In this document: positions 14,616-46,637 of the stretch, one piece after another
Position numbering within the stretch: the stretch's first letter is position 1
Layout: each line of letters opens with the position of its first letter
Source: a virus
IMG/VR virus record: IMGVR_UViG_2902405164_000001
Coordinates: 1,012 to 65,011 of that record
Length of the DNA: 64,000 bases
Strand: one strand, 5' to 3'
The notes under the pieces: generated by a model
Database searches by the model: none
What the model saw: only the letters and a program-made list of their open reading frames with translations
Told to the model about the DNA's origin: nothing
Position numbers and translations under genes: made by a program

Positions 14616-14968
14616 CTGATGCCCGCGCCTACGGGTTGACGACCCGAGCCCGAGAGTTGCTGGCGGTCCTCCGCGAATGGATCCTCGTTCGCGGAGTGAC
14701 ACCCACCTATGCCGAGCTTGCTGAAGAGGTCGGGCTGAACAGCAAGTCCGGCGTGCATCGGCTGATCTCCCAGTTAGAGGCGCGCGGCTTGGTCCGGCGA
14801 CTGCCCGACAAGTGGCAGTCCATCACGCTCGTTGAGCCTCACACCATAGCTCTGCCGGAAGACGTGGCGTTTGCCCTGCGCCACGCCGCGCGCGCTGCCG
14901 GCCGGACGCCCGAAGAGCATGTCGCTGCGCTCGTTCGGCACCACTGCCCCGCGCCCAGCCCCTTCTAA
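14612..14968 (+). CDS. LexA N-terminal-like DNA-binding protein (no peptidase)
   Basis: LTTRARELL...PTYAELAEEVGLNSKSGVHRLISQLEARGLVRR. Confidence 0.85.
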   Translation: MTDARAYGLTTRARELLAVLREWILVRGVTPTYAELAEEVGLNSKSGVHRLISQLEARGLVRRLPDKWQSITLVEPHTIALPEDVAFALRHAARAAGRTPEEHVAALVRHHCPAPSPF

Positions 14969-14990
14969 CCCTCACAGCACGAGGCCAGCC

Positions 14991-16013
14991 GTGAAGAACG
15001 ATTGCTTAGACGCTGTCACGGCCGTGCTGGACGAGCTTGGCATTGCCTACGCGGTCGGCCGCGGTGGGAAGCATCACCGTATCGACTTCGAAGTGAACGG
15101 CCGCCGCTGCCGCACTACCGCGCCTGTGACGCCGAGTGACCACCGGGCGGCTCTGAACGGCGCCTCGCAGGTCAGACGGATCATCCGCCAAGCCCAGGAA
15201 GAGACCGCCGCTGATCAGGAGGCCCCGATGACCGTTGCCCAGCCCGCCGGCCCCGCGCTCGCGCTCTTCTTCGAGAACGCACCCATCCGCGTCATCGACA
15301 TTGATGGCAGCATGTTCTTCGTCGGCAAGGATGTCGCCGAGCAGCTTGGATATACCAATCCCAGCAAGGCCATGGCTGACCACTGCAAGGGGGTAACGAA
15401 ACGGTACCCCCTTTCGACCTCCGGCGGCGTTCAGGAGGTCCGGGTTTTGTCTGAGCCCGATGTGCTTCGGCTCATCGTGAAGAGCAATCTCCCGGCTGCC
15501 CTGCGGTTTGAGCGTTGGGTCTTTGAGGAGGTGCTGCCGACGATCCGCAAGCACGGCGCTTACGCCTCCGATCCCGCGCTGATGCGGCAGATTGAGGAGC
15601 TGTCGGCCAAGCTCGCCAACGTCGAGGCTGCCGCAGATTTGGCGCTGGAGGCTGCCGGCCGGATCGAGATGGGCAAGCTCGCCCCGACCGTCGATCTCGC
15701 CTCCACGGTCACCTCTGACGATCTGATTAGCCTCGCAGGCATCAAGCCCGGCCAGCGCGTCCGTGGCACCTCGGCCTTCGTTACTGGCCGCGTCCTCACC
15801 TTCACCGCCGGCCACGGCTGCTTCAAGACGCCCGCTCACCTCAACCCGTCGATGCCCTGGCGCTTCCCGCGTGAGAAGGGGACGGAGTGGCTGTTCGGCG
15901 CGCAGCTCGGCGCGGAGCAGATCCGCAATCAGATTGATCGGCAGCGCCGCAAGAAGGCTCAGCGCACGCGCCCGTCACATCAAGGGCACCTGTCGCTGGT
16001 GGGGGCGCCCTGA
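14991..16013 (+). CDS. BRO-N antirepressor with HicA-like N-terminal domain
   Basis: GKHHRI...TPSDHRA then FVGKDVAEQLGY...RFERWVFEEVLPTIRKHGAY. Confidence 0.85.
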   Translation: MKNDCLDAVTAVLDELGIAYAVGRGGKHHRIDFEVNGRRCRTTAPVTPSDHRAALNGASQVRRIIRQAQEETAADQEAPMTVAQPAGPALALFFENAPIRVIDIDGSMFFVGKDVAEQLGYTNPSKAMADHCKGVTKRYPLSTSGGVQEVRVLSEPDVLRLIVKSNLPAALRFERWVFEEVLPTIRKHGAYASDPALMRQIEELSAKLANVEAAADLALEAAGRIEMGKLAPTVDLASTVTSDDLISLAGIKPGQRVRGTSAFVTGRVLTFTAGHGCFKTPAHLNPSMPWRFPREKGTEWLFGAQLGAEQIRNQIDRQRRKKAQRTRPSHQGHLSLVGAP

Positions 16014-23191: not shown

Positions 23192-23500
23192 ATGGCCGGC
23201 AATCCCAACATCCAGCCCGGCCCTGGCCGTCCCAAGGGCTCGGTCAACAAGACGACCGCCCTGCTCAAGGATGCCATCCTGAAGGCCGCACAAACGGCCG
23301 GTGGCGGCGGTGAGGACGGGATCGCTAACTACCTCGCTGATCGGGCCATCGACACGCCTGGGCCGTTTCTCGCGCTGCTAGGCAAGGTTCTGCCCATGCA
23401 GGTCACAGGCGAGGATGGCGAGGCCATCAAGACGGACAATACCTTGCGCCTCGTGTTCATGAAGCCGGGCGACCAACGTGCCGACGATCACGGCTCCTGA
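23192..23500 (+). CDS. terS: Terminase small subunit
   Basis: GRPKGSVNKTT..LKDAI...FLALLGKVLPMQVTG; precedes terL. Confidence 0.85.
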   Translation: MAGNPNIQPGPGRPKGSVNKTTALLKDAILKAAQTAGGGGEDGIANYLADRAIDTPGPFLALLGKVLPMQVTGEDGEAIKTDNTLRLVFMKPGDQRADDHGS

Positions 23501-24704
23501 AGCCTTCCAGTTCCTGTACGAGGGCGAGGCACGCTACCGCGCGGCGTATGGTGGTCGGGGTTCGGCAAAGTCACACAGCTTCGCTCAGGCCTTGGTGATC
23601 AAGGCAGCCATGGAGCCGAAGCGCATCCTCTGCGCTCGCGAAATCCAGAACAGCATCAAAGACTCGGTTCAACGCCTGCTGCTCGACAAGATCGAGGAAT
23701 GCGGGCTGTCTGGCTTCTACACAGCCGTTGAGAGCGAGATCCGCGGGGCCAATGGCTCGCTGTTTATGTTCTCAGGTCTGCGCACCAACCCTGACAGCGT
23801 TAAATCAAAAGAGGGTTTCGACTACGCCTGGATCGAGGAGGCAGCGACCGTCTCCCAGCGTTCGCTGGACATCCTGATCCCGACGCTTCGCAAGCCGAGC
23901 TCTGAGATCTGGGTGACTTGGAACCCCCGGTCGCAGAAGGATCCGATTGACGCGTTGCTGCGCGGCCCAGAGCCCCCACCGCGTTCCATCGTTCGTCGAG
24001 TGAACTACGACGACAACCCGTGGTTTCCCGACGTTCTCCGCGACGAGATGGAGTACGACCGGCGGCGAGACCCGGACAAGTACAGCCACATCTGGCTCGG
24101 TGAGTACCAGCGCAACAGCGAAGCCCGCGTCTTCCGCAATTGGCGGATCGAGGCGTTCGAGACGCCAGCCGATGCGCGGTTCTACTACGGGGCGGATTGG
24201 GGCTTCTCGGTGGACCCGACCACGCTGGTTCGCTGTTTCGTCGATGGTCGGACGCTCTACGTGGACCGCGAGGTCTACGAGGTCGGCTGCGAGATTGATC
24301 GCACGCCCGCCCTGTTCGATACGTTGGACGATGGGCAGGCCCGCAAGTGGCCGATCCGGGCGGACAGCGCCAGGCCCGAGACGATCTCGTACCTGCAGCG
24401 GCACGGCTATCCCAAGCTGGTGCCGGCGACGAAAGGGCAGGGGTCGGTAGAGGACGGGATCGAGTTCCTGAAGTCCTACGACATCGTGGTTCATCCGGAC
24501 TGCCGGCACACCATCGATGAGCTGACCCTGTACGCCTACAAGACCGACCCGCTCACAGGCGAGGTGATGCCAGTGCTTGCGGACAAATCCAATCACGTCA
24601 TCGACGCGCTGCGCTACGCCGTGGAACTGCTGCGGGGCGCCAAGCCGCTCCTCATCACGCCCGAAGCTCTGCGCCGCTCGGCCATGGGTGGGCGCAGGTT
24701 TTGA
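23478..24704 (+). CDS. terL: Terminase large subunit (PBSX type)
   Basis: YGGRGSAKS, WIEEA, GADWG, DKSNHVIDALRYA. Confidence 0.97.
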   Translation: MPTITAPEAFQFLYEGEARYRAAYGGRGSAKSHSFAQALVIKAAMEPKRILCAREIQNSIKDSVQRLLLDKIEECGLSGFYTAVESEIRGANGSLFMFSGLRTNPDSVKSKEGFDYAWIEEAATVSQRSLDILIPTLRKPSSEIWVTWNPRSQKDPIDALLRGPEPPPRSIVRRVNYDDNPWFPDVLRDEMEYDRRRDPDKYSHIWLGEYQRNSEARVFRNWRIEAFETPADARFYYGADWGFSVDPTTLVRCFVDGRTLYVDREVYEVGCEIDRTPALFDTLDDGQARKWPIRADSARPETISYLQRHGYPKLVPATKGQGSVEDGIEFLKSYDIVVHPDCRHTIDELTLYAYKTDPLTGEVMPVLADKSNHVIDALRYAVELLRGAKPLLITPEALRRSAMGGRRF

Positions 24705-26896
24705 ACTTCCTTCGCTGGTTCAAGGCCAAGCAGCCCGAACCGACACCGACCGCAACCGCCGCGCAGTCACAGGCGCCGGCAAAGCCTGCCTTTCGCGTCT
24801 CGCATGAGGCCGTCGCGCATTCCCGCGTTCCTCGGACGACATCGCCCGCCGTCAACCCGTTCAAGCCCGCGCAGCACCCCAAGGGCGTTGCCCCGGCTGG
24901 ATTGGCGATGGATGATGCCTTCGGGGCCACGTTCGGCGCCGACTTCGGCTGGTCTGCGGGTGGCTATCAGGATCTCGGTCTGGCCGGTGAGGGGCTGTTC
25001 TTCCTCGGCTACCCCTACCTGACCGAACTCGCCCAGCGCCCTGAGTATCGCCGGATCAGCGAGACCATCGCCACGGAGATGACCCGGAAGTGGATCCGGG
25101 TGACGGCCACGGGTGAGGACGACAAGACTGATCGCATCACGGCGATCAACGCCGCGCTTGAGCGCTTCGGCGTGCGCGACAAATTCCGAGAGATCGCAGA
25201 GCAGGACGGGTTCTTCGGGCGCTCGCACCTGTACGTGGACCTCGGCGCCAGCTTCGATGATGCCGTGGAACTGCGCACCCCGATCGGCGGGAACGCGGCC
25301 AGCACGAAGATCGCCAAGAACTCGCTGAAGGGCTTCCGTGCCGTTGAGGCTGTCTGGTGCTATCCGCAGGGGTACAACACCAGCAACCCGCTCGGCAGCG
25401 ACTGGTACAAGCCGCAGACCTGGACGGTGCTCGGCCGTCCGGTTCACAGCTCGCGTTTGCTGACCTTCGTCGGCCGAGAAGTGCCCGATCTGCTCAAGCC
25501 CGCCTACTCGTTCGGCGGCCTCAGCATGTCGCAGATGGCCAAGCCCTACGTCGATAACTGGTTGAGAACCCGGCAAAGCGTCGCGGACCTGATCTCGTCG
25601 TTCTCGGTGTCGGGCTTCAAGATCAACATGGCCGACCTGCTAGCCTCGGATGCGACCGGCGCGACGCTCGACAATCGCATCGCCCTGTTCATGAACTACC
25701 GGGACAACCGGAATGCGATGGTCCTGAATAAGGCCACCGCGAGCGACCCGGCCGAGGAGTTCTTCAACGTCTCGACCCCGCTCGGCACCCTGGACGTGCT
25801 CCAAGCGCAGACGCAGGAGCATATGGCGGCCGTCAGTGGTATTCCGCTGGTCAAGCTGCTTGGTATCTCTCCCGCTGGCCTGAACGCCAGCAGCGAAGGC
25901 GAAATCCGCACCTTCTACGACATGATCCACTCCTATCAGGAGCGGTTCTATCGCCCGAACCTGCAAGCCGTGCTGGACATCATTCAGCTCAGCGAGTTCG
26001 GCGACGTCGACCCGGACATTCACTTCTCGTTTGAGCCCCTTTGGTCGCTGGACGACAAGGAACTCGCCGAGGTCCGCAAGATCGAAGCCGACACCGACGT
26101 GGTGCTGGTTGAGGGCGGGATCCTCCTCCCCGAAGAAGCCCGCAAGCGGATCGCAGGCGACCCTGATACGATCTATCAGGGTCTGGACCTCACGGTCGAT
26201 ATCGCCCCGCCTCCCGGCGAGAACGATGATCTACCCGAGCCGCCCAAGCCTGGGATCGGCGGCGAGACTGCGCCCGAGGATGATGCGCTAGCCGAAGACG
26301 CTCAGTTCAACGAGGGGGATCATCCCCGCGATGCCAATGGCGAGTTTGCGGCTGGCAATGTTGCAAGCCCGAAGAAGCCAAAGGTGTCGTTCGGATCAAG
26401 CCCGGCGCAGAACATCAAGACCGCCCTAAAATATTTGGACTCAAAGGGCGTTAAGGCCGTTTCGTATGCCGGCAATGAAAAGGGCGTGGGCGCCTCCTAT
26501 TCCCCAACGCAGAATATGATCGGCATTAACAAGAACGCCAAAGTTGGCGGGACTGCGCATCTAAACAAATCCCTGTTTGGAAAGAACGGGGATATGCATT
26601 ATTGGCAGTCTCCTGAGATTTGGGCCACTCAACAGCACTCCTCCGGGTGGACATCTTCGCCGAGCCCTTCGCATGTGCTCGACCACGAGGTCGGACATCA
26701 TAAATACGAGGCTCCGGATAACTGGAAATCCGATGACCATGCAGCACTCGTAAAGAAGCATGTTTCGGAATACGCCTCGAAAAACCCAAACGAGTTCGCT
26801 GCCGAGTACCACGCAGGCACGGAAAACGGGAAAACCTATCCCAAGGAAATACAAGACCTGTTTTCGCATTATGTGAAACCACGCGGAAGCAAGTAG
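24701..26896 (+). CDS. Portal protein (DUF1073 type) fused to C-terminal zincin metallopeptidase-like domain
   Basis: Portal core (ETIATEMTRKW, IPLVKLLGISPAGLNASSEG) then DHPRDANGEF linker, HEVGH and SEYASKNPNEFAAE. Confidence 0.9.
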   Translation: MNFLRWFKAKQPEPTPTATAAQSQAPAKPAFRVSHEAVAHSRVPRTTSPAVNPFKPAQHPKGVAPAGLAMDDAFGATFGADFGWSAGGYQDLGLAGEGLFFLGYPYLTELAQRPEYRRISETIATEMTRKWIRVTATGEDDKTDRITAINAALERFGVRDKFREIAEQDGFFGRSHLYVDLGASFDDAVELRTPIGGNAASTKIAKNSLKGFRAVEAVWCYPQGYNTSNPLGSDWYKPQTWTVLGRPVHSSRLLTFVGREVPDLLKPAYSFGGLSMSQMAKPYVDNWLRTRQSVADLISSFSVSGFKINMADLLASDATGATLDNRIALFMNYRDNRNAMVLNKATASDPAEEFFNVSTPLGTLDVLQAQTQEHMAAVSGIPLVKLLGISPAGLNASSEGEIRTFYDMIHSYQERFYRPNLQAVLDIIQLSEFGDVDPDIHFSFEPLWSLDDKELAEVRKIEADTDVVLVEGGILLPEEARKRIAGDPDTIYQGLDLTVDIAPPPGENDDLPEPPKPGIGGETAPEDDALAEDAQFNEGDHPRDANGEFAAGNVASPKKPKVSFGSSPAQNIKTALKYLDSKGVKAVSYAGNEKGVGASYSPTQNMIGINKNAKVGGTAHLNKSLFGKNGDMHYWQSPEIWATQQHSSGWTSSPSPSHVLDHEVGHHKYEAPDNWKSDDHAALVKKHVSEYASKNPNEFAAEYHAGTENGKTYPKEIQDLFSHYVKPRGSK

Positions 26897-26900
26897 CCTC

Positions 26901-27680
26901 GTGACCTACCATCACCGCTTCGCCCAGGATCGGGCAGGCACATCGGCCCGATCCGCGTTCAAGCGGGCGCTGAAGCTGGAGAGATCCTACGCGCAGCGCC
27001 TTCGCGGCATCGCCCGGCACATCGGCGACATCGTCAAGGGCTTCGCCTGGGAGACACTGGAGGAGATCGCCGCGTCCTCTGAGCCCGCGCAGCGGCTGCT
27101 GCGACGCTACGCCGACACGCTGGACCCTTGGGCCAATGCGGTCGCGCAGAGGATGGTGGCAGAGGTTGCCGCCTCGGATCGCGTGTCCTGGCGCAAGTTG
27201 TCCTCCGACATGGGGCGGCAGCTACACCGGGAGATCGACACGGCGCCGACAGGCGAGGCCATGCGCGCCTCAATGCAGCGTCAGGTGGGCCTCATCAAGT
27301 CGCTACCGCTGGATGCCGCTGAACGGGTCCACAAGCTCACGCAAGAGGGCATCACGCAGGGTCGCAGGGCCGCCGAGATCGCCGACGAGATCATGGCGAG
27401 CGGTGATGTGGCGCGCAGTCGGGCGATGCTCATAGCCCGCACGGAAGTGTCTCGCACTGCGACCGAACTGACCAAGGCGCGGGCCGAGCACATCGGATCC
27501 ACGCACTTTATCTGGCGCACTGCCGGCGACAGCGATGTCCGCTCCACGCACAAGGTGCTGAACGGCAAGACCTTCCGCTGGGATCAGCCGCCCGAGTGCG
27601 ATCCCGGCCACCATGCGCTGCCCGGCGGCATCTGGAATTGCCGGTGCTACCCAGAAGTGGTGGTGCCTGACCTCGACTGA
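26901..27680 (+). CDS. Head morphogenesis protein (SPP1 gp7/MuF), short form
   Basis: RAMLIARTE, FIWRTAGDSDVRSTH...G..WNCRC. Confidence 0.93.
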   Translation: MTYHHRFAQDRAGTSARSAFKRALKLERSYAQRLRGIARHIGDIVKGFAWETLEEIAASSEPAQRLLRRYADTLDPWANAVAQRMVAEVAASDRVSWRKLSSDMGRQLHREIDTAPTGEAMRASMQRQVGLIKSLPLDAAERVHKLTQEGITQGRRAAEIADEIMASGDVARSRAMLIARTEVSRTATELTKARAEHIGSTHFIWRTAGDSDVRSTHKVLNGKTFRWDQPPECDPGHHALPGGIWNCRCYPEVVVPDLD

Positions 27681-27686
27681 GGCGCT

Positions 27687-29108
27687 ATGCCCCCTGCCAA
27701 CACCTTCACGGTGATCGCGTTTGACCGGGCGTCTTCTCGCTCGTTCGACGCGCTCTCCGGTCACCTCCACGTCAAGCTGACCAACATCAGCAAGGCCACG
27801 GTCAACCCCTACCTCGGGCGCGAGATCAACGGCGCCGACGAGATGGGGCTGGATCCCGAGCGCATCTACATGCTGCTCCGGCACCCCGACGAGTTGGCGA
27901 AGGCCGCGCAGAGCTTTGACGGCAAGCCGCTCCTTGAAATTCACAAGCCGATGTTTGCTGCCGATCACGACCACGCGGTTACGGTCGGATCGGTCAGCGG
28001 TGTCGTCTATGACCACCCATATCTCAAAGCTAATCTTGCAGTCTGGTCCGACAAAGCCATCAAGGCAATTGAAGACGAGACGCAAAAAGAGTTGTCGTGC
28101 GGCTACGGCTACACGGCGGACATGACGTCCGGAACTTATGAGGGCGTCCGATATGACGGGATCATGCGGAATATCCGCGGGAACCACGTCAGTTTAGTGG
28201 CTGAAGGTCGTGCGGGCAAAGACGTTGTTGTCGGCGACTCCTTGGAGAATATCACGATGGCAAAGCACGCTTTGTCGGGTGCGGCTGCACAGACGCAGGG
28301 CGCGCTCGCTGTCTATCTCATGGGCAAGCTGGCCGCCGACGCGAAGGTTGACCTTCGCCCTGCGGTGACCGGCCTGACCACCAAGAACTTCAAGGCGCGT
28401 CAGGGCAAGCTCGCCCATGACGTGAAGAAGCTGACCACCGGCAAACTCGCTGCCGACGCCAGCATCGACGACGTGGCCGAGGTGATCGAGGCCCTGTCCG
28501 AGATCCTCCCCGAGGAGGTGCCGGAAGTCGTCGAGGAGATGGGCGGCACCGAGGAAGAGACCGGCGTCACCACCGACGAGGACGGCGACGACGACATCGC
28601 CGCCAAGCTGGCTGCGGCTGGCGTGCCCGAGGCGATCATCGCCAAGGTCATGGGCGAGATGAACGATCCGGCCCCGGCGATGGACGCCGACAAGGACGAC
28701 AAGAAGATCGACGACGACAAGAAGGACAAGCCCGCGATGGATCGCAACACCGTCACCACGCAGGCGATGGATGCTGCCATCCGTTCTGCTGTCAACGCCG
28801 CGGAGAAGCGCGCAACCGAGCGCGTGCTTCGTACCCAGCAGGAGATCCGTGATGCCGAGCGGGCTGTGCGCTCGCGTGCCGGCGACGTGATCCACGCCAA
28901 CGACAGCGCCGCGAGCGTCTACCGTGCCGCGCTCACCAACATGGGCGTCGATCACTCTGAGGTTCCGGACACGGGCGTCCGCGCTCTGTTCAACGCCATT
29001 CCTGAAGCCACGCCCCAGCGCTCCAAGCCGGTTCTGGTCGCCCAGGATGCCGCCGCGTCGAAGGAATTTGACGCGATGTTCCCCCACGCCAACCGGCTCA
29101 AGAACTGA
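27687..29108 (+). CDS. DUF2213 prohead protease/scaffold
   Basis: ISKATVNPYLGREI, ELSCGY, NHVSLV..GRAG; acidic C-terminus. Confidence 0.9.
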   Translation: MPPANTFTVIAFDRASSRSFDALSGHLHVKLTNISKATVNPYLGREINGADEMGLDPERIYMLLRHPDELAKAAQSFDGKPLLEIHKPMFAADHDHAVTVGSVSGVVYDHPYLKANLAVWSDKAIKAIEDETQKELSCGYGYTADMTSGTYEGVRYDGIMRNIRGNHVSLVAEGRAGKDVVVGDSLENITMAKHALSGAAAQTQGALAVYLMGKLAADAKVDLRPAVTGLTTKNFKARQGKLAHDVKKLTTGKLAADASIDDVAEVIEALSEILPEEVPEVVEEMGGTEEETGVTTDEDGDDDIAAKLAAAGVPEAIIAKVMGEMNDPAPAMDADKDDKKIDDDKKDKPAMDRNTVTTQAMDAAIRSAVNAAEKRATERVLRTQQEIRDAERAVRSRAGDVIHANDSAASVYRAALTNMGVDHSEVPDTGVRALFNAIPEATPQRSKPVLVAQDAAASKEFDAMFPHANRLKN

Positions 29109-44712: not shown

Positions 44713-45624
44713 ATGGCCAATTACAACATCACCGCGGACTCGACGCTCGTCGCGATCAACGGCGATTTCCCGACCGCTGATGCCAATCCTTACGCGCTCC
44801 CGCCGGCCATTACGAAAACGGCCGATGCCTACATGGGGCTTATCACGCCCTGGCAGGCCAACTCGGTCAAGGCCCGTTTCCTCGCGACGGTCCGGGCGAA
44901 CGTGCAGCCTCAGGCTGACGTTCAGGCTTTCGTCGCAGGCCTACCGCAGGCTTTCGACGTTGACGAGGCCATCGGCGTACAGCTTGACATCGACGGGCAG
45001 TGGATCGGGCGCGACCGCTACGTGCCTATCCCCCTACCTGACACGACCTTTGCTCTTGGCATTGAAGGCCGCGGTCTCGGGCAAGGGTACTGGCGGACCA
45101 ACTATGACGGCGAGAATGCCATCTCGTCCCTTCCCGACAGCCTCTACCGCCCGCTTCTCTACGCCAAGATCCTCGCGAACCGGTGGGACGGAACCGCTAC
45201 CATGGCGGTGCAGATCGTCCGCACGTACCTGACGGACCCGTCCACCATCGTGTTCGCGAATGACGGGGCGCGGGCGATCGTACCTCACCAAGGCGATGTG
45301 ATCTTCTCGCTCGGCGTTCCAGGGGCCGGCCTTGGGCAGGGCCGCTGGCTCGGCAAGATGGAATACCCTGCGACGCCCAAGCGCGTCGGCATGGCCTATA
45401 GCATCTGCATCTCCGGTAAGCTGCCGTCGCGAACCGATCTCTACATTCTCGCGAACGATCTCCTGCCGGTGAAGGCGATGGGCGTTGACGCCCGCATCTC
45501 CGTGACCTCGACCGACGGTGCTCCCGTCTTCGGGCTCGGCATGAACAACAGCCAGATCGGCGGCCTTGGCGTCGGGGCCTGGGGCCGAGATCCCGCGACC
45601 GTCGCCGCCACGCTGGTCGCCTAA
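44713..45624 (+). CDS. Baseplate wedge protein (DUF2612-like)
   Basis: FDVDEAIGVQLDIDGQWIG, YAKILANRWDG. Confidence 0.85.
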   Translation: MANYNITADSTLVAINGDFPTADANPYALPPAITKTADAYMGLITPWQANSVKARFLATVRANVQPQADVQAFVAGLPQAFDVDEAIGVQLDIDGQWIGRDRYVPIPLPDTTFALGIEGRGLGQGYWRTNYDGENAISSLPDSLYRPLLYAKILANRWDGTATMAVQIVRTYLTDPSTIVFANDGARAIVPHQGDVIFSLGVPGAGLGQGRWLGKMEYPATPKRVGMAYSICISGKLPSRTDLYILANDLLPVKAMGVDARISVTSTDGAPVFGLGMNNSQIGGLGVGAWGRDPATVAATLVA

Positions 45625-45701: not shown

Positions 45702-46637
45702 ATGCCCACCAATGGCTTTCTGCCCAACTCGACCGGCGTCGGCGCCGTCGTCCTCAATGATGCCGACTATGCCGCAAGCGATGCGATCACGCAGGGAGCG
45801 CAGGTCGGCGAACTGCCGCCACAATACTATAACAAGGTGAACCGACAGACCTCGGTCATCGCCTCAATGATCGGCCAGTTCATCGTCGATAATGCGGCCG
45901 TTGACGCGAACGACAGCCAGAGCATCGCGACGCTTGAAGGCAACTTCATTCTTGGGCTGAAGGCGGTTTTGACCGGTCTTGCTACTTCGGTGGCGACGAC
46001 CGTTTACAAGAACATGCCTCCCGTCCAGCAGATTTTTGTAGACCCAGTCAACGGGTCCGAAACCAATGACGGAACCACGTCATCAAAAGCCCGCAAGGAT
46101 CTTGACACCGTACTTGACGAGCAGAAGAACGTCGGAACAGCCATCATTCTTCTGAACAACGCTCAGCTTATCCGGCGACGGAACGTCTATGCGTTTTTAG
46201 CGATATATGGTGCGCAAATCTCTGGGAATGCGCAGGGCTGGACGGCAACGCCGCGAGTCATCCAGTTTATCGGAACCGCAACGAACTCCCCTCTCCCTGA
46301 CGGCTCAACGTTCGGCTCAGGGTTCTGGCTCGACGGTCCGACGTTCGTTACCGATCAAATCATCTGGTCTATTCCGACCCAGGCTCCGAGCCAGACTTAT
46401 AACGATCACATCCGTTCCGAGTACGGAACGGGCGTGCTGATCGTCGGCTCGACGCTCAACGTGGCAGAAACTAACGCCGGCTTTCTTCTCGGAGCGTCTG
46501 CGGCGACGGTCCCGTTCGATAGCTTCCTCGATATCGGGCTGAACGCTGGGGCTCCCGGGCATCTGTTCCGTGGGGTTATCGCAGGGGCAAACCCCAACAC
46601 CCTGTTCCAGTACCGCAGCAACGTCACTTCGGCCTGA
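45702..46637 (+). CDS. Tail fibre protein
   Basis: NKVNRQTSVIASMIGQFI anchor; FVDPVNGSETNDG. Confidence 0.75.
   Translation: MPTNGFLPNSTGVGAVVLNDADYAASDAITQGAQVGELPPQYYNKVNRQTSVIASMIGQFIVDNAAVDANDSQSIATLEGNFILGLKAVLTGLATSVATTVYKNMPPVQQIFVDPVNGSETNDGTTSSKARKDLDTVLDEQKNVGTAIILLNNAQLIRRRNVYAFLAIYGAQISGNAQGWTATPRVIQFIGTATNSPLPDGSTFGSGFWLDGPTFVTDQIIWSIPTQAPSQTYNDHIRSEYGTGVLIVGSTLNVAETNAGFLLGASAATVPFDSFLDIGLNAGAPGHLFRGVIAGANPNTLFQYRSNVTSA

Follow-up and report, generated by a model that had tools for sequence, protein, structure and literature searches.

Zincin metallopeptidases (MPTases) were described as a hub domain of phage polyvalent proteins and were unified with anthrax lethal factor (LF) by Iyer, Burroughs, Anand, de Souza and Aravind (Iyer et al. 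2017, PMC5512222). The same paper reported portal and MuF proteins with fused effectors of the PBECR and 2H types. For MuF toxins of temperate phages, metallopeptidase domains were found on 20% of the toxins, and a small downstream open reading frame (ORF) was present for 89% of the toxin genes (Jamet et al. 2017, PMC5576092). Here, a phage portal gene was examined in a window of 64,000 nucleotides, which is the whole stretch of DNA analysed (positions 1,012 to 65,011 of the IMG/VR record IMGVR_UViG_2902405164_000001). An earlier note, made from the sequence alone, had read this portal as carrying a zincin peptidase at its C-terminus. Our analysis led to a similar view of the protein, and we consider it likely that the fused domain is an accessory protease cargo carried in the virion, which came from a mobile cassette that entered the portal gene at its 3' end.

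The locus was compared with four described systems. It resembled the MPTases of Iyer et al. in its HExxH motif with a downstream glutamate, in the occurrence of its family in giant multidomain virion proteins and beside head genes, and as cargo assumed to be packaged and delivered. However, it is a minimal protein of two parts, portal and peptidase, which the Pfam family MPTase-PolyVal (PF18818) misses, and the string HPR of the junction motif described below had zero occurrences in the searched parts of that paper. Anthrax LF and the PPEP peptidases (MEROPS family M34) gave the best structural matches and shared HExxH and the pattern Y-x6-E-F-x-A-E, whereas the identity was about 16%, the receptor-binding and other LF domains were absent here, and the context was a phage head. 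In MuF toxins, a head protein encoded beside the portal ends in domains that vary between phages, and the same peptidase family was MuF-fused in 16 of 59 mid-sized homologues. In contrast to those toxins, the carrier here was the portal, MuF was a separate short gene, and no small downstream ORF was present. The head module was like that of the Pbunavirus Pseudomonas phages Pa193 and E217 in its order of terminase, portal, MuF, scaffold and capsid genes and in the contractile tail. Among the Pfam families named after these phages, Pa193_gp24 (PF09979) was found here, and the E217_gp27, cement and capsid families were found in collinear relatives. For the Pa193 portal, no cargo domain is mentioned in the parts of the published account that describe it (PMC11456595), which is a comparison by description and not of the Pa193 and E217 portal sequences.

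The fusion reading frame and the inserted cassette

The portal gene was found to be one continuous ORF of 731 amino acids, as the earlier note had claimed, with the following parts. Public sequencing runs, called X1 to X4, were compared with the window at the contig level.

24701 to 26896, plus strand: portal-peptidase fusion ORF, 731 amino acids; continuous frame, identical in the X1 contig at a word depth of 664
25016 to 26098, plus strand: portal core, residues 106-466; PF06381 Phage_portal_3 (E 3.4e-85) and phrog_146 portal (E 1.3e-110)
26099 to 26287, plus strand: the portal's own acidic and proline-rich tail, residues 467-529; common to cassette-free relatives, which stop here
26288 to 26899, plus strand: inserted cassette of predicted cargo, 612 bp, replacing the ancestral stop codon; homology break against the related locus L006, empty site in X3, lowest GC content
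26306 to 26347, plus strand: junction motif F.E.DHPR...G.F, residues 536-549; shared by 14 of the 16 long portals, absent from all 103 short portals
26402 to 26893, plus strand: predicted folded zincin (MPTase) domain, residues 568-731, about 165 amino acids; AlphaFold2 model and structural matches
26684 to 26698, plus strand: HEVGH from residue 662, with two predicted zinc-binding histidines and the catalytic glutamate; H662, E663 and H666 invariant or nearly so in 79 homologues
26771 to 26806, plus strand: segment Y691...E698...E702, with the catalytic tyrosine and third zinc ligand by analogy with LF; profile alignment to the LF fragment 2l0r

The portal core was matched by PF06381 (Phage_portal_3, also DUF1073) with 286.3 bits against a gathering cut-off of 33.8. 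It was followed by an acidic stretch with 17 aspartate or glutamate and 10 proline residues among 69 amino acids (residues 467-535). The string DHPRDANGEF begins at residue 540 (nucleotide 26318), and SEYASKNPNEFAAE is located at residue 689 (nucleotide 26765). No stop codon was present inside the ORF, and no in-frame ATG was found between residues 469 and 605, in agreement with the note. The nearest alternative start was a GTG at residue 562, which had no convincing ribosome-binding site. Beyond the portal core, no Pfam match explained the ORF. For residues 530-731, searches of Pfam, NCBIfam and PHROGs yielded no significant family; Peptidase_M91 (E 0.55) and a PHROGs "peptidase" family (E 0.061) came closest. 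The note had put the extra domain at about 190 amino acids. The domain itself held up, but its folded part is predicted to be about 165 amino acids, preceded by about 30 amino acids that contain the junction motif. The gap from the portal stop to the MuF start was 4 nucleotides, so no immunity-type or small acidic partner ORF fits after the portal; the note had likewise seen no immunity gene.

The closest portal, P0153, was 84% identical; it has 534 amino acids and ends in a matching acidic, proline-rich tail. Its locus, L006, was collinear with the window, with genes for the portal, a 259-amino-acid MuF, DUF2213, cement and capsid proteins. Nucleotide homology between the two broke near 26283 and was picked up at 26900, and the alignment put the insert at about 26288-26899, where the ancestral portal stop was replaced and the MuF start codon was retained. 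The guanine-cytosine (GC) content of this segment was 0.528, compared with a window mean of 0.636 (standard deviation 0.025). This was the lowest of 1268 sliding segments and bore out the note's remark that the domain is AT-richer. The GC content at third codon positions was 0.83 in the portal, 0.61 in the cassette and 0.83 in MuF.

The contigs gave a consistent picture. X1, which is possibly the source of the record, contained the whole stretch with zero differences, and neither a stop nor a frameshift at the junction, on which the note had said its fusion would fall, was present in this contig. A relative in X3 had an empty site, where 27 different letters linked position 26267 to 26900. A single X4 contig stopped at 26900, and its flanking letters agreed, which fits the same empty site. 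X2, which is a phyllosphere metagenome of a separate study, had contigs over 26525-26760 and 26806-26950, both about 95% identical to the window, and the latter spans the junction of cassette and MuF. No phage in the INPHARED collection matched past about residue 600 of the portal, no RNA data were listed as containing the stretch, and the fused protein fell in a cluster with one member. On homology and composition, the 612-bp cassette is judged to have been inserted recently where the portal gene ends. The peptidase domain was absent from the 119 nearest portals, which argues for a separate acquisition in this phage. Since the nearest relatives assemble without the domain, it is dispensable for assembly and is regarded as accessory.

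Fold and family of the peptidase domain

An exhaustive phmmer search with residues 535-731 returned 260 homologues with E<=1e-3, of which 38 reached E<=1e-10. Because of these 260 homologues, HEVGH was not regarded as a chance match. Word-indexed protein searches with the domain returned only its own protein or nothing, and a single-sequence search of the PDB returned nothing useful. In the homologue alignments, the conserved blocks were the junction motif, a helix, I.LN....W.DP, SS..P.H...HE.GH and VS.YA..NP.EFVAE..AG...GK.Y., and H662, E663, H666, Y691, E698 and E702 were invariant or nearly so among 79 homologues. AlphaFold2 on residues 535-731 with these 79 sequences gave a model with a mean predicted local distance difference test score of 90.3 and a predicted template modelling (TM) score of 0.83. 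Its secondary structure began at residue 568, with strands followed by helices at 124-134, 144-153 and 162-174 of the model.

The model was compared with 48,161 PDB chains by a structural scan independent of Foldseek. The top match was the catalytic domain of anthrax LF, 1yqy_A (Z 6.8, root-mean-square deviation 3.9 Å, 126 aligned residues), followed by other LF-fold entries, PPEP-2 and PPEP-3 (Z 4.6-4.7), PprI, SprT-type proteins, ArdC and thermolysin. Almost all of the list were zincins, and all of the top rows were. Foldseek against the PDB and Swiss-Prot models gave weak rows only (E>0.1), though these were enriched in zincins. The family profile matched the Bacteroides zincin 4l7a (E 0.002) and aligned HE.GH and Y-x6-E-F-x-A-E with the matching pattern in the LF catalytic fragment 2l0r (E 0.28). 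In BFVD, matches at E 1e-5 to 1e-3 included phage proteins named by their depositors "Lethal factor" (E 9.4e-6), "Metalloprotease" and "Minor capsid protein". The model also matched R4T736, a 190-amino-acid protein of the haloarchaeal Halogranum tailed virus 1 (E 8e-5, TM-score 0.5), and on this structural likeness the family may extend to archaeal tailed viruses.

In LF, we take the corresponding residues to be H686, E687, H690, Y728 and E735, with Y728 as the catalytic tyrosine and E735 as the third zinc ligand. By analogy, Y691 and E698 would occupy the places of Y728 and E735. HExxH lies on a helix of the model and the glutamate on the next, the core is made of strands plus helices, and homologues occur in multidomain polyvalent proteins, as for the MPTases. 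These results suggested that the domain is a catalytically complete, LF-like gluzincin, so the note's call of an HExxH zincin peptidase was borne out by homologues, conserved catalytic positions and structural matches. It was filed as LF-like and not as a member of M34, since the models of that family failed to match it. Its label as "polymorphic-toxin-like" was given up, since the carrier is not MuF, no immunity ORF lies downstream, and the domain belongs with the MPTases of polyvalent proteins.

The family was found in several other contexts. Among the best 150 homologues, 60 were solo proteins (<=260 amino acids), the peptidase-only form having about 190 amino acids, and 16 were over 1,000 amino acids. 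The giants ranged from 2,388 to 5,045 amino acids (P0150, 2388; P0024, 4337; P0003, 5045). One solo gene lay directly 3' of MuF in locus L004. The 59 mid-sized homologues, of about 700 amino acids, comprised 16 with MuF and 2 with DUF2213 (P0005 and P0130, where the peptidase is N-terminal to DUF2213), and others had ART-PolyVal, Zeta or TrbL partners. Two more of the 59 carried the domain on portals. In P0032, a PF06381 portal (46% identical) was followed by the peptidase and then by a zeta-toxin kinase, and in P0144 the peptidase was on a portal of a different family, PF04860. Because two portal families carry the domain, at least two independent fusions are suggested by sequence. In a quick domain tree with weak support, the three portal-fused copies were scattered, and a single origin was still compatible with it. 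In locus L009 (218-6295), we observed a portal-led polyprotein of 2025 amino acids with three copies of the HPR motif and, at its end, a HEFAH zincin missed by the family profile; two downstream ORFs there also bear the HPR motif.

The portal cargo slot, its junction motif and the gene neighbourhood

The note had proposed a swappable effector slot on the portal and a catalogue of the domains that follow the HPR motif. This catalogue was made with the 119 best portal homologues, divided into short (<600 amino acids, n=103) and long (>=660 amino acids, n=16) portals. Short portals ended in the acidic tail, and none of the 103 had the motif. In 14 of the 16 long portals, HPR...G.F came right after the tail and was repeated before every further module. 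Their cargo included Acb1, a phosphodiesterase against the cyclic-oligonucleotide-based antiphage signalling system (CBASS), ADP-ribosyltransferases (ARTs; four), zeta-type kinases (three), a histidine phosphatase (His_Phos_1), a type IB topoisomerase and a PRTase, and several had no Pfam match. The locus L008 had a matching DAQFNEGDHPR junction with a small helical cargo. These results supported, by sequence comparison, the view that portals of this clade have a swappable slot at the C-terminus, and the note's proposal stood.

The motif also opened the solo peptidases and separated modules in P0150 (four copies), P0032 (two) and L009. A locus search with the fusion protein alone returned only two loci, both sharing the junction motif. 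Four motif-bearing portal-cargo loci had no peptidase of the zincin family within 10 kb, so the motif appears to be independent of the peptidase. We considered whether HPR is the peptidase's own cleavage site, and these four loci disfavoured it. No description of the junction motif was found in the searched literature.

Two of these four loci encoded a DUF2213 protein with an N-terminal NUDIX domain. The NUDIX domain was observed on the DUF2213/Pa193-gp24-like scaffold in L010 (12173-14536, 787 amino acids) and L013 (9063-11027, 654 amino acids), and in L010 the HPR motif was in the same frame. This arrangement suggests that the scaffold protein may be a second cargo slot. Small ORFs lay directly 3' of portals bearing a zeta kinase or an ART, in L001 (8856-9026, 56 amino acids) and L013 (5856-6044, 62 amino acids), and are candidate neutralising partners. 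Plain DUF1073 portals (e.g. P0265, P0191 and P0233) were labelled "anti-CBASS Acb1 family protein" in public databases. This is probably an annotation error that spread from fusions such as P0156.

The portal gene lies between the large terminase gene and the genes for MuF, scaffold and capsid. The head module ran in the order large terminase, portal, short MuF, DUF2213/Pa193-gp24-like protein, cement protein and major capsid protein, and the genes next to the portal were as follows.

23478 to 24704, plus strand: large terminase subunit; Pfam Terminase_3 and Terminase_3C, stop overlapping the portal start
26901 to 27680, plus strand: short MuF head protein, 259 amino acids, without a C-terminal extension; PF04233 at residues 142-249
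27687 to 29108, plus strand: DUF2213/Pa193 gp24-like putative scaffolding protein; PF09979, E 5.6e-46

Nothing follows the MuF domain in the MuF protein, which the note had rightly called short and toxin-free. The record is 65,517 bp with direct terminal repeats and was rated complete, and the gene set was that of a contractile-tailed phage (myovirus), with tail sheath, baseplate wedge and tape measure proteins. The window also encoded a DNA methyltransferase, a helicase loader and an Ant-type anti-repressor, the last at 14871-16013 (phrog_130, E 3e-47). The anti-repressor suggests a temperate lifestyle, as far as gene content indicates it, despite the direct terminal repeats of the record. 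The second-lowest GC segment of the window (45750-46400, about 0.55) lay in an ORF of 311 amino acids (45702-46637) that had no Pfam match and was directly 3' of the baseplate genes (DUF2612 at 44713-45624). Here, a tail-fibre or receptor-binding module may have been swapped.

Role of the fused peptidase

In the reading we favour, a mobile 612-bp cassette would have entered the 3' end of the portal gene and replaced its stop codon, so that the portal reads from its flexible acidic tail through F.E.DHPR...G.F into the LF-like gluzincin. Because portal C-termini point into the capsid, the head would enclose up to twelve copies, each hanging by a flexible tail below the portal barrel. They may be freed, perhaps at or near the junction motif, and would then exit with the DNA. 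As the next infection begins, the freed protease would act on proteins of the host or on proteins packaged with it. The main argument for packaging was the shared location of the family's carriers, since the C-terminus of the portal, MuF and the gp24-like scaffold are all found in the capsid interior. For MuF, this location is established from gp7 of SPP1. The portal C-terminal barrel and gp24 of Pa193 face the capsid interior (PMC11456595), and a polyvalent protein with an MPTase was found in phi24B virions by proteomics (bioRxiv 10.64898/2026.04.10.717836).

Several points weigh against this reading. Virion presence, cleavage, ejection and activity of the domain are predictions of this reading, and the portal remains in the capsid, so delivery would need a putative cut. 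The structural Z-scores were modest (6.8). Pfam MPTase-PolyVal (PF18818, no match at E<=1) and ATLF missed the fusion protein. PF18818 perhaps covers only some of the 12 clades of Iyer et al., structures from the ESM Atlas and of ArdC matched weakly, and ATLF matched 2 of the 59 mid-sized homologues directly. In X2, no contig covered 26114-26517, so the 5' junction was seen only in X1, the possible source of the record. Finally, Iyer et al. prefer autoproteolytic processing for many MPTases (PMC5512222).

This last proposal leads to the alternative that survives best, although we regard it as unlikely. The domain would be a processing protease that cuts phage proteins in the prohead or at ejection, by releasing itself or other cargo or by trimming the tails of the portal, MuF or scaffold. 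It fits the chains in which a zincin stands with other HPR-separated modules (P0032, as portal, MPTase and zeta kinase; P0150; the L009 polyprotein), and it fits P0005 and P0130, where the peptidase is N-terminal on the scaffold-like DUF2213 protein, a place where prohead proteases are often fused. However, the peptidase is the only cargo here and has no neighbour to free, and many homologues are peptidase-only, either solo or fused to MuF. The four HPR-motif portal-cargo loci do without a peptidase of this family within 10 kb, and the closest relative lacks the domain altogether, which speaks against a need for it in maturation.

An action in the producer cell was judged very improbable. The protease, attached to free portal subunits, would work in the cytoplasm late in infection and would never be delivered to a new host. 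The fusion makes late expression alongside the portal certain, and a portal moonlighting in the cytoplasm has a precedent in T7 gp8 against RelA/SpoT, as cited in PMC13728456. However, the occurrence of the domain on three capsid-interior carriers and in virion polyvalent proteins points to packaging, and slot-mates such as Acb1 would be most useful at the very onset of infection. A neutral passenger, that is a recent functionless insertion, or a chimeric assembly artefact would suit the composition, which indicates recent acquisition, and the one-member cluster, but its chance is close to negligible given the intact frame with all catalytic residues kept, the X1 depth of 664 with no variants, the 3' junction shared by X2 and the analogous fusions in P0032, P0144 and L009.

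Compared with these alternatives, we hold to a packaged accessory protease cargo as the likely role. A wider proposal is possible but doubtful. In this proposal, F.E..HPR...G.F would be an undescribed general punctuation signal, a cleavage or loading site, of a capsid-cargo system on the portal C-terminus, MuF and the DUF2213 N-terminus, and the LF-like peptidase would be more than a processing enzyme, namely a counter-defence protease that is injected and cleaves an immune protein of the host. Since the slot-mates include Acb1, a proven anti-CBASS enzyme, analogy suggests that the slot may hold counter-defence tools.

The locus is a tidy minimal example of the known theme of portal and MuF cargo and not a new system. 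That phages hang swappable enzyme cargo on head proteins is an already published proposal, and one more example was given here. No domain is more common in phage polyvalent proteins than the zincin peptidase, and to our knowledge nobody has yet decided by experiment between cargo processing and an attack on the host. With a peptidase as the sole cargo, a carrier of known geometry with twelve inward C-termini and a cassette-free sister as a control, this portal would offer a clean test system for packaging, cleavage at the junction motif, delivery and substrate.

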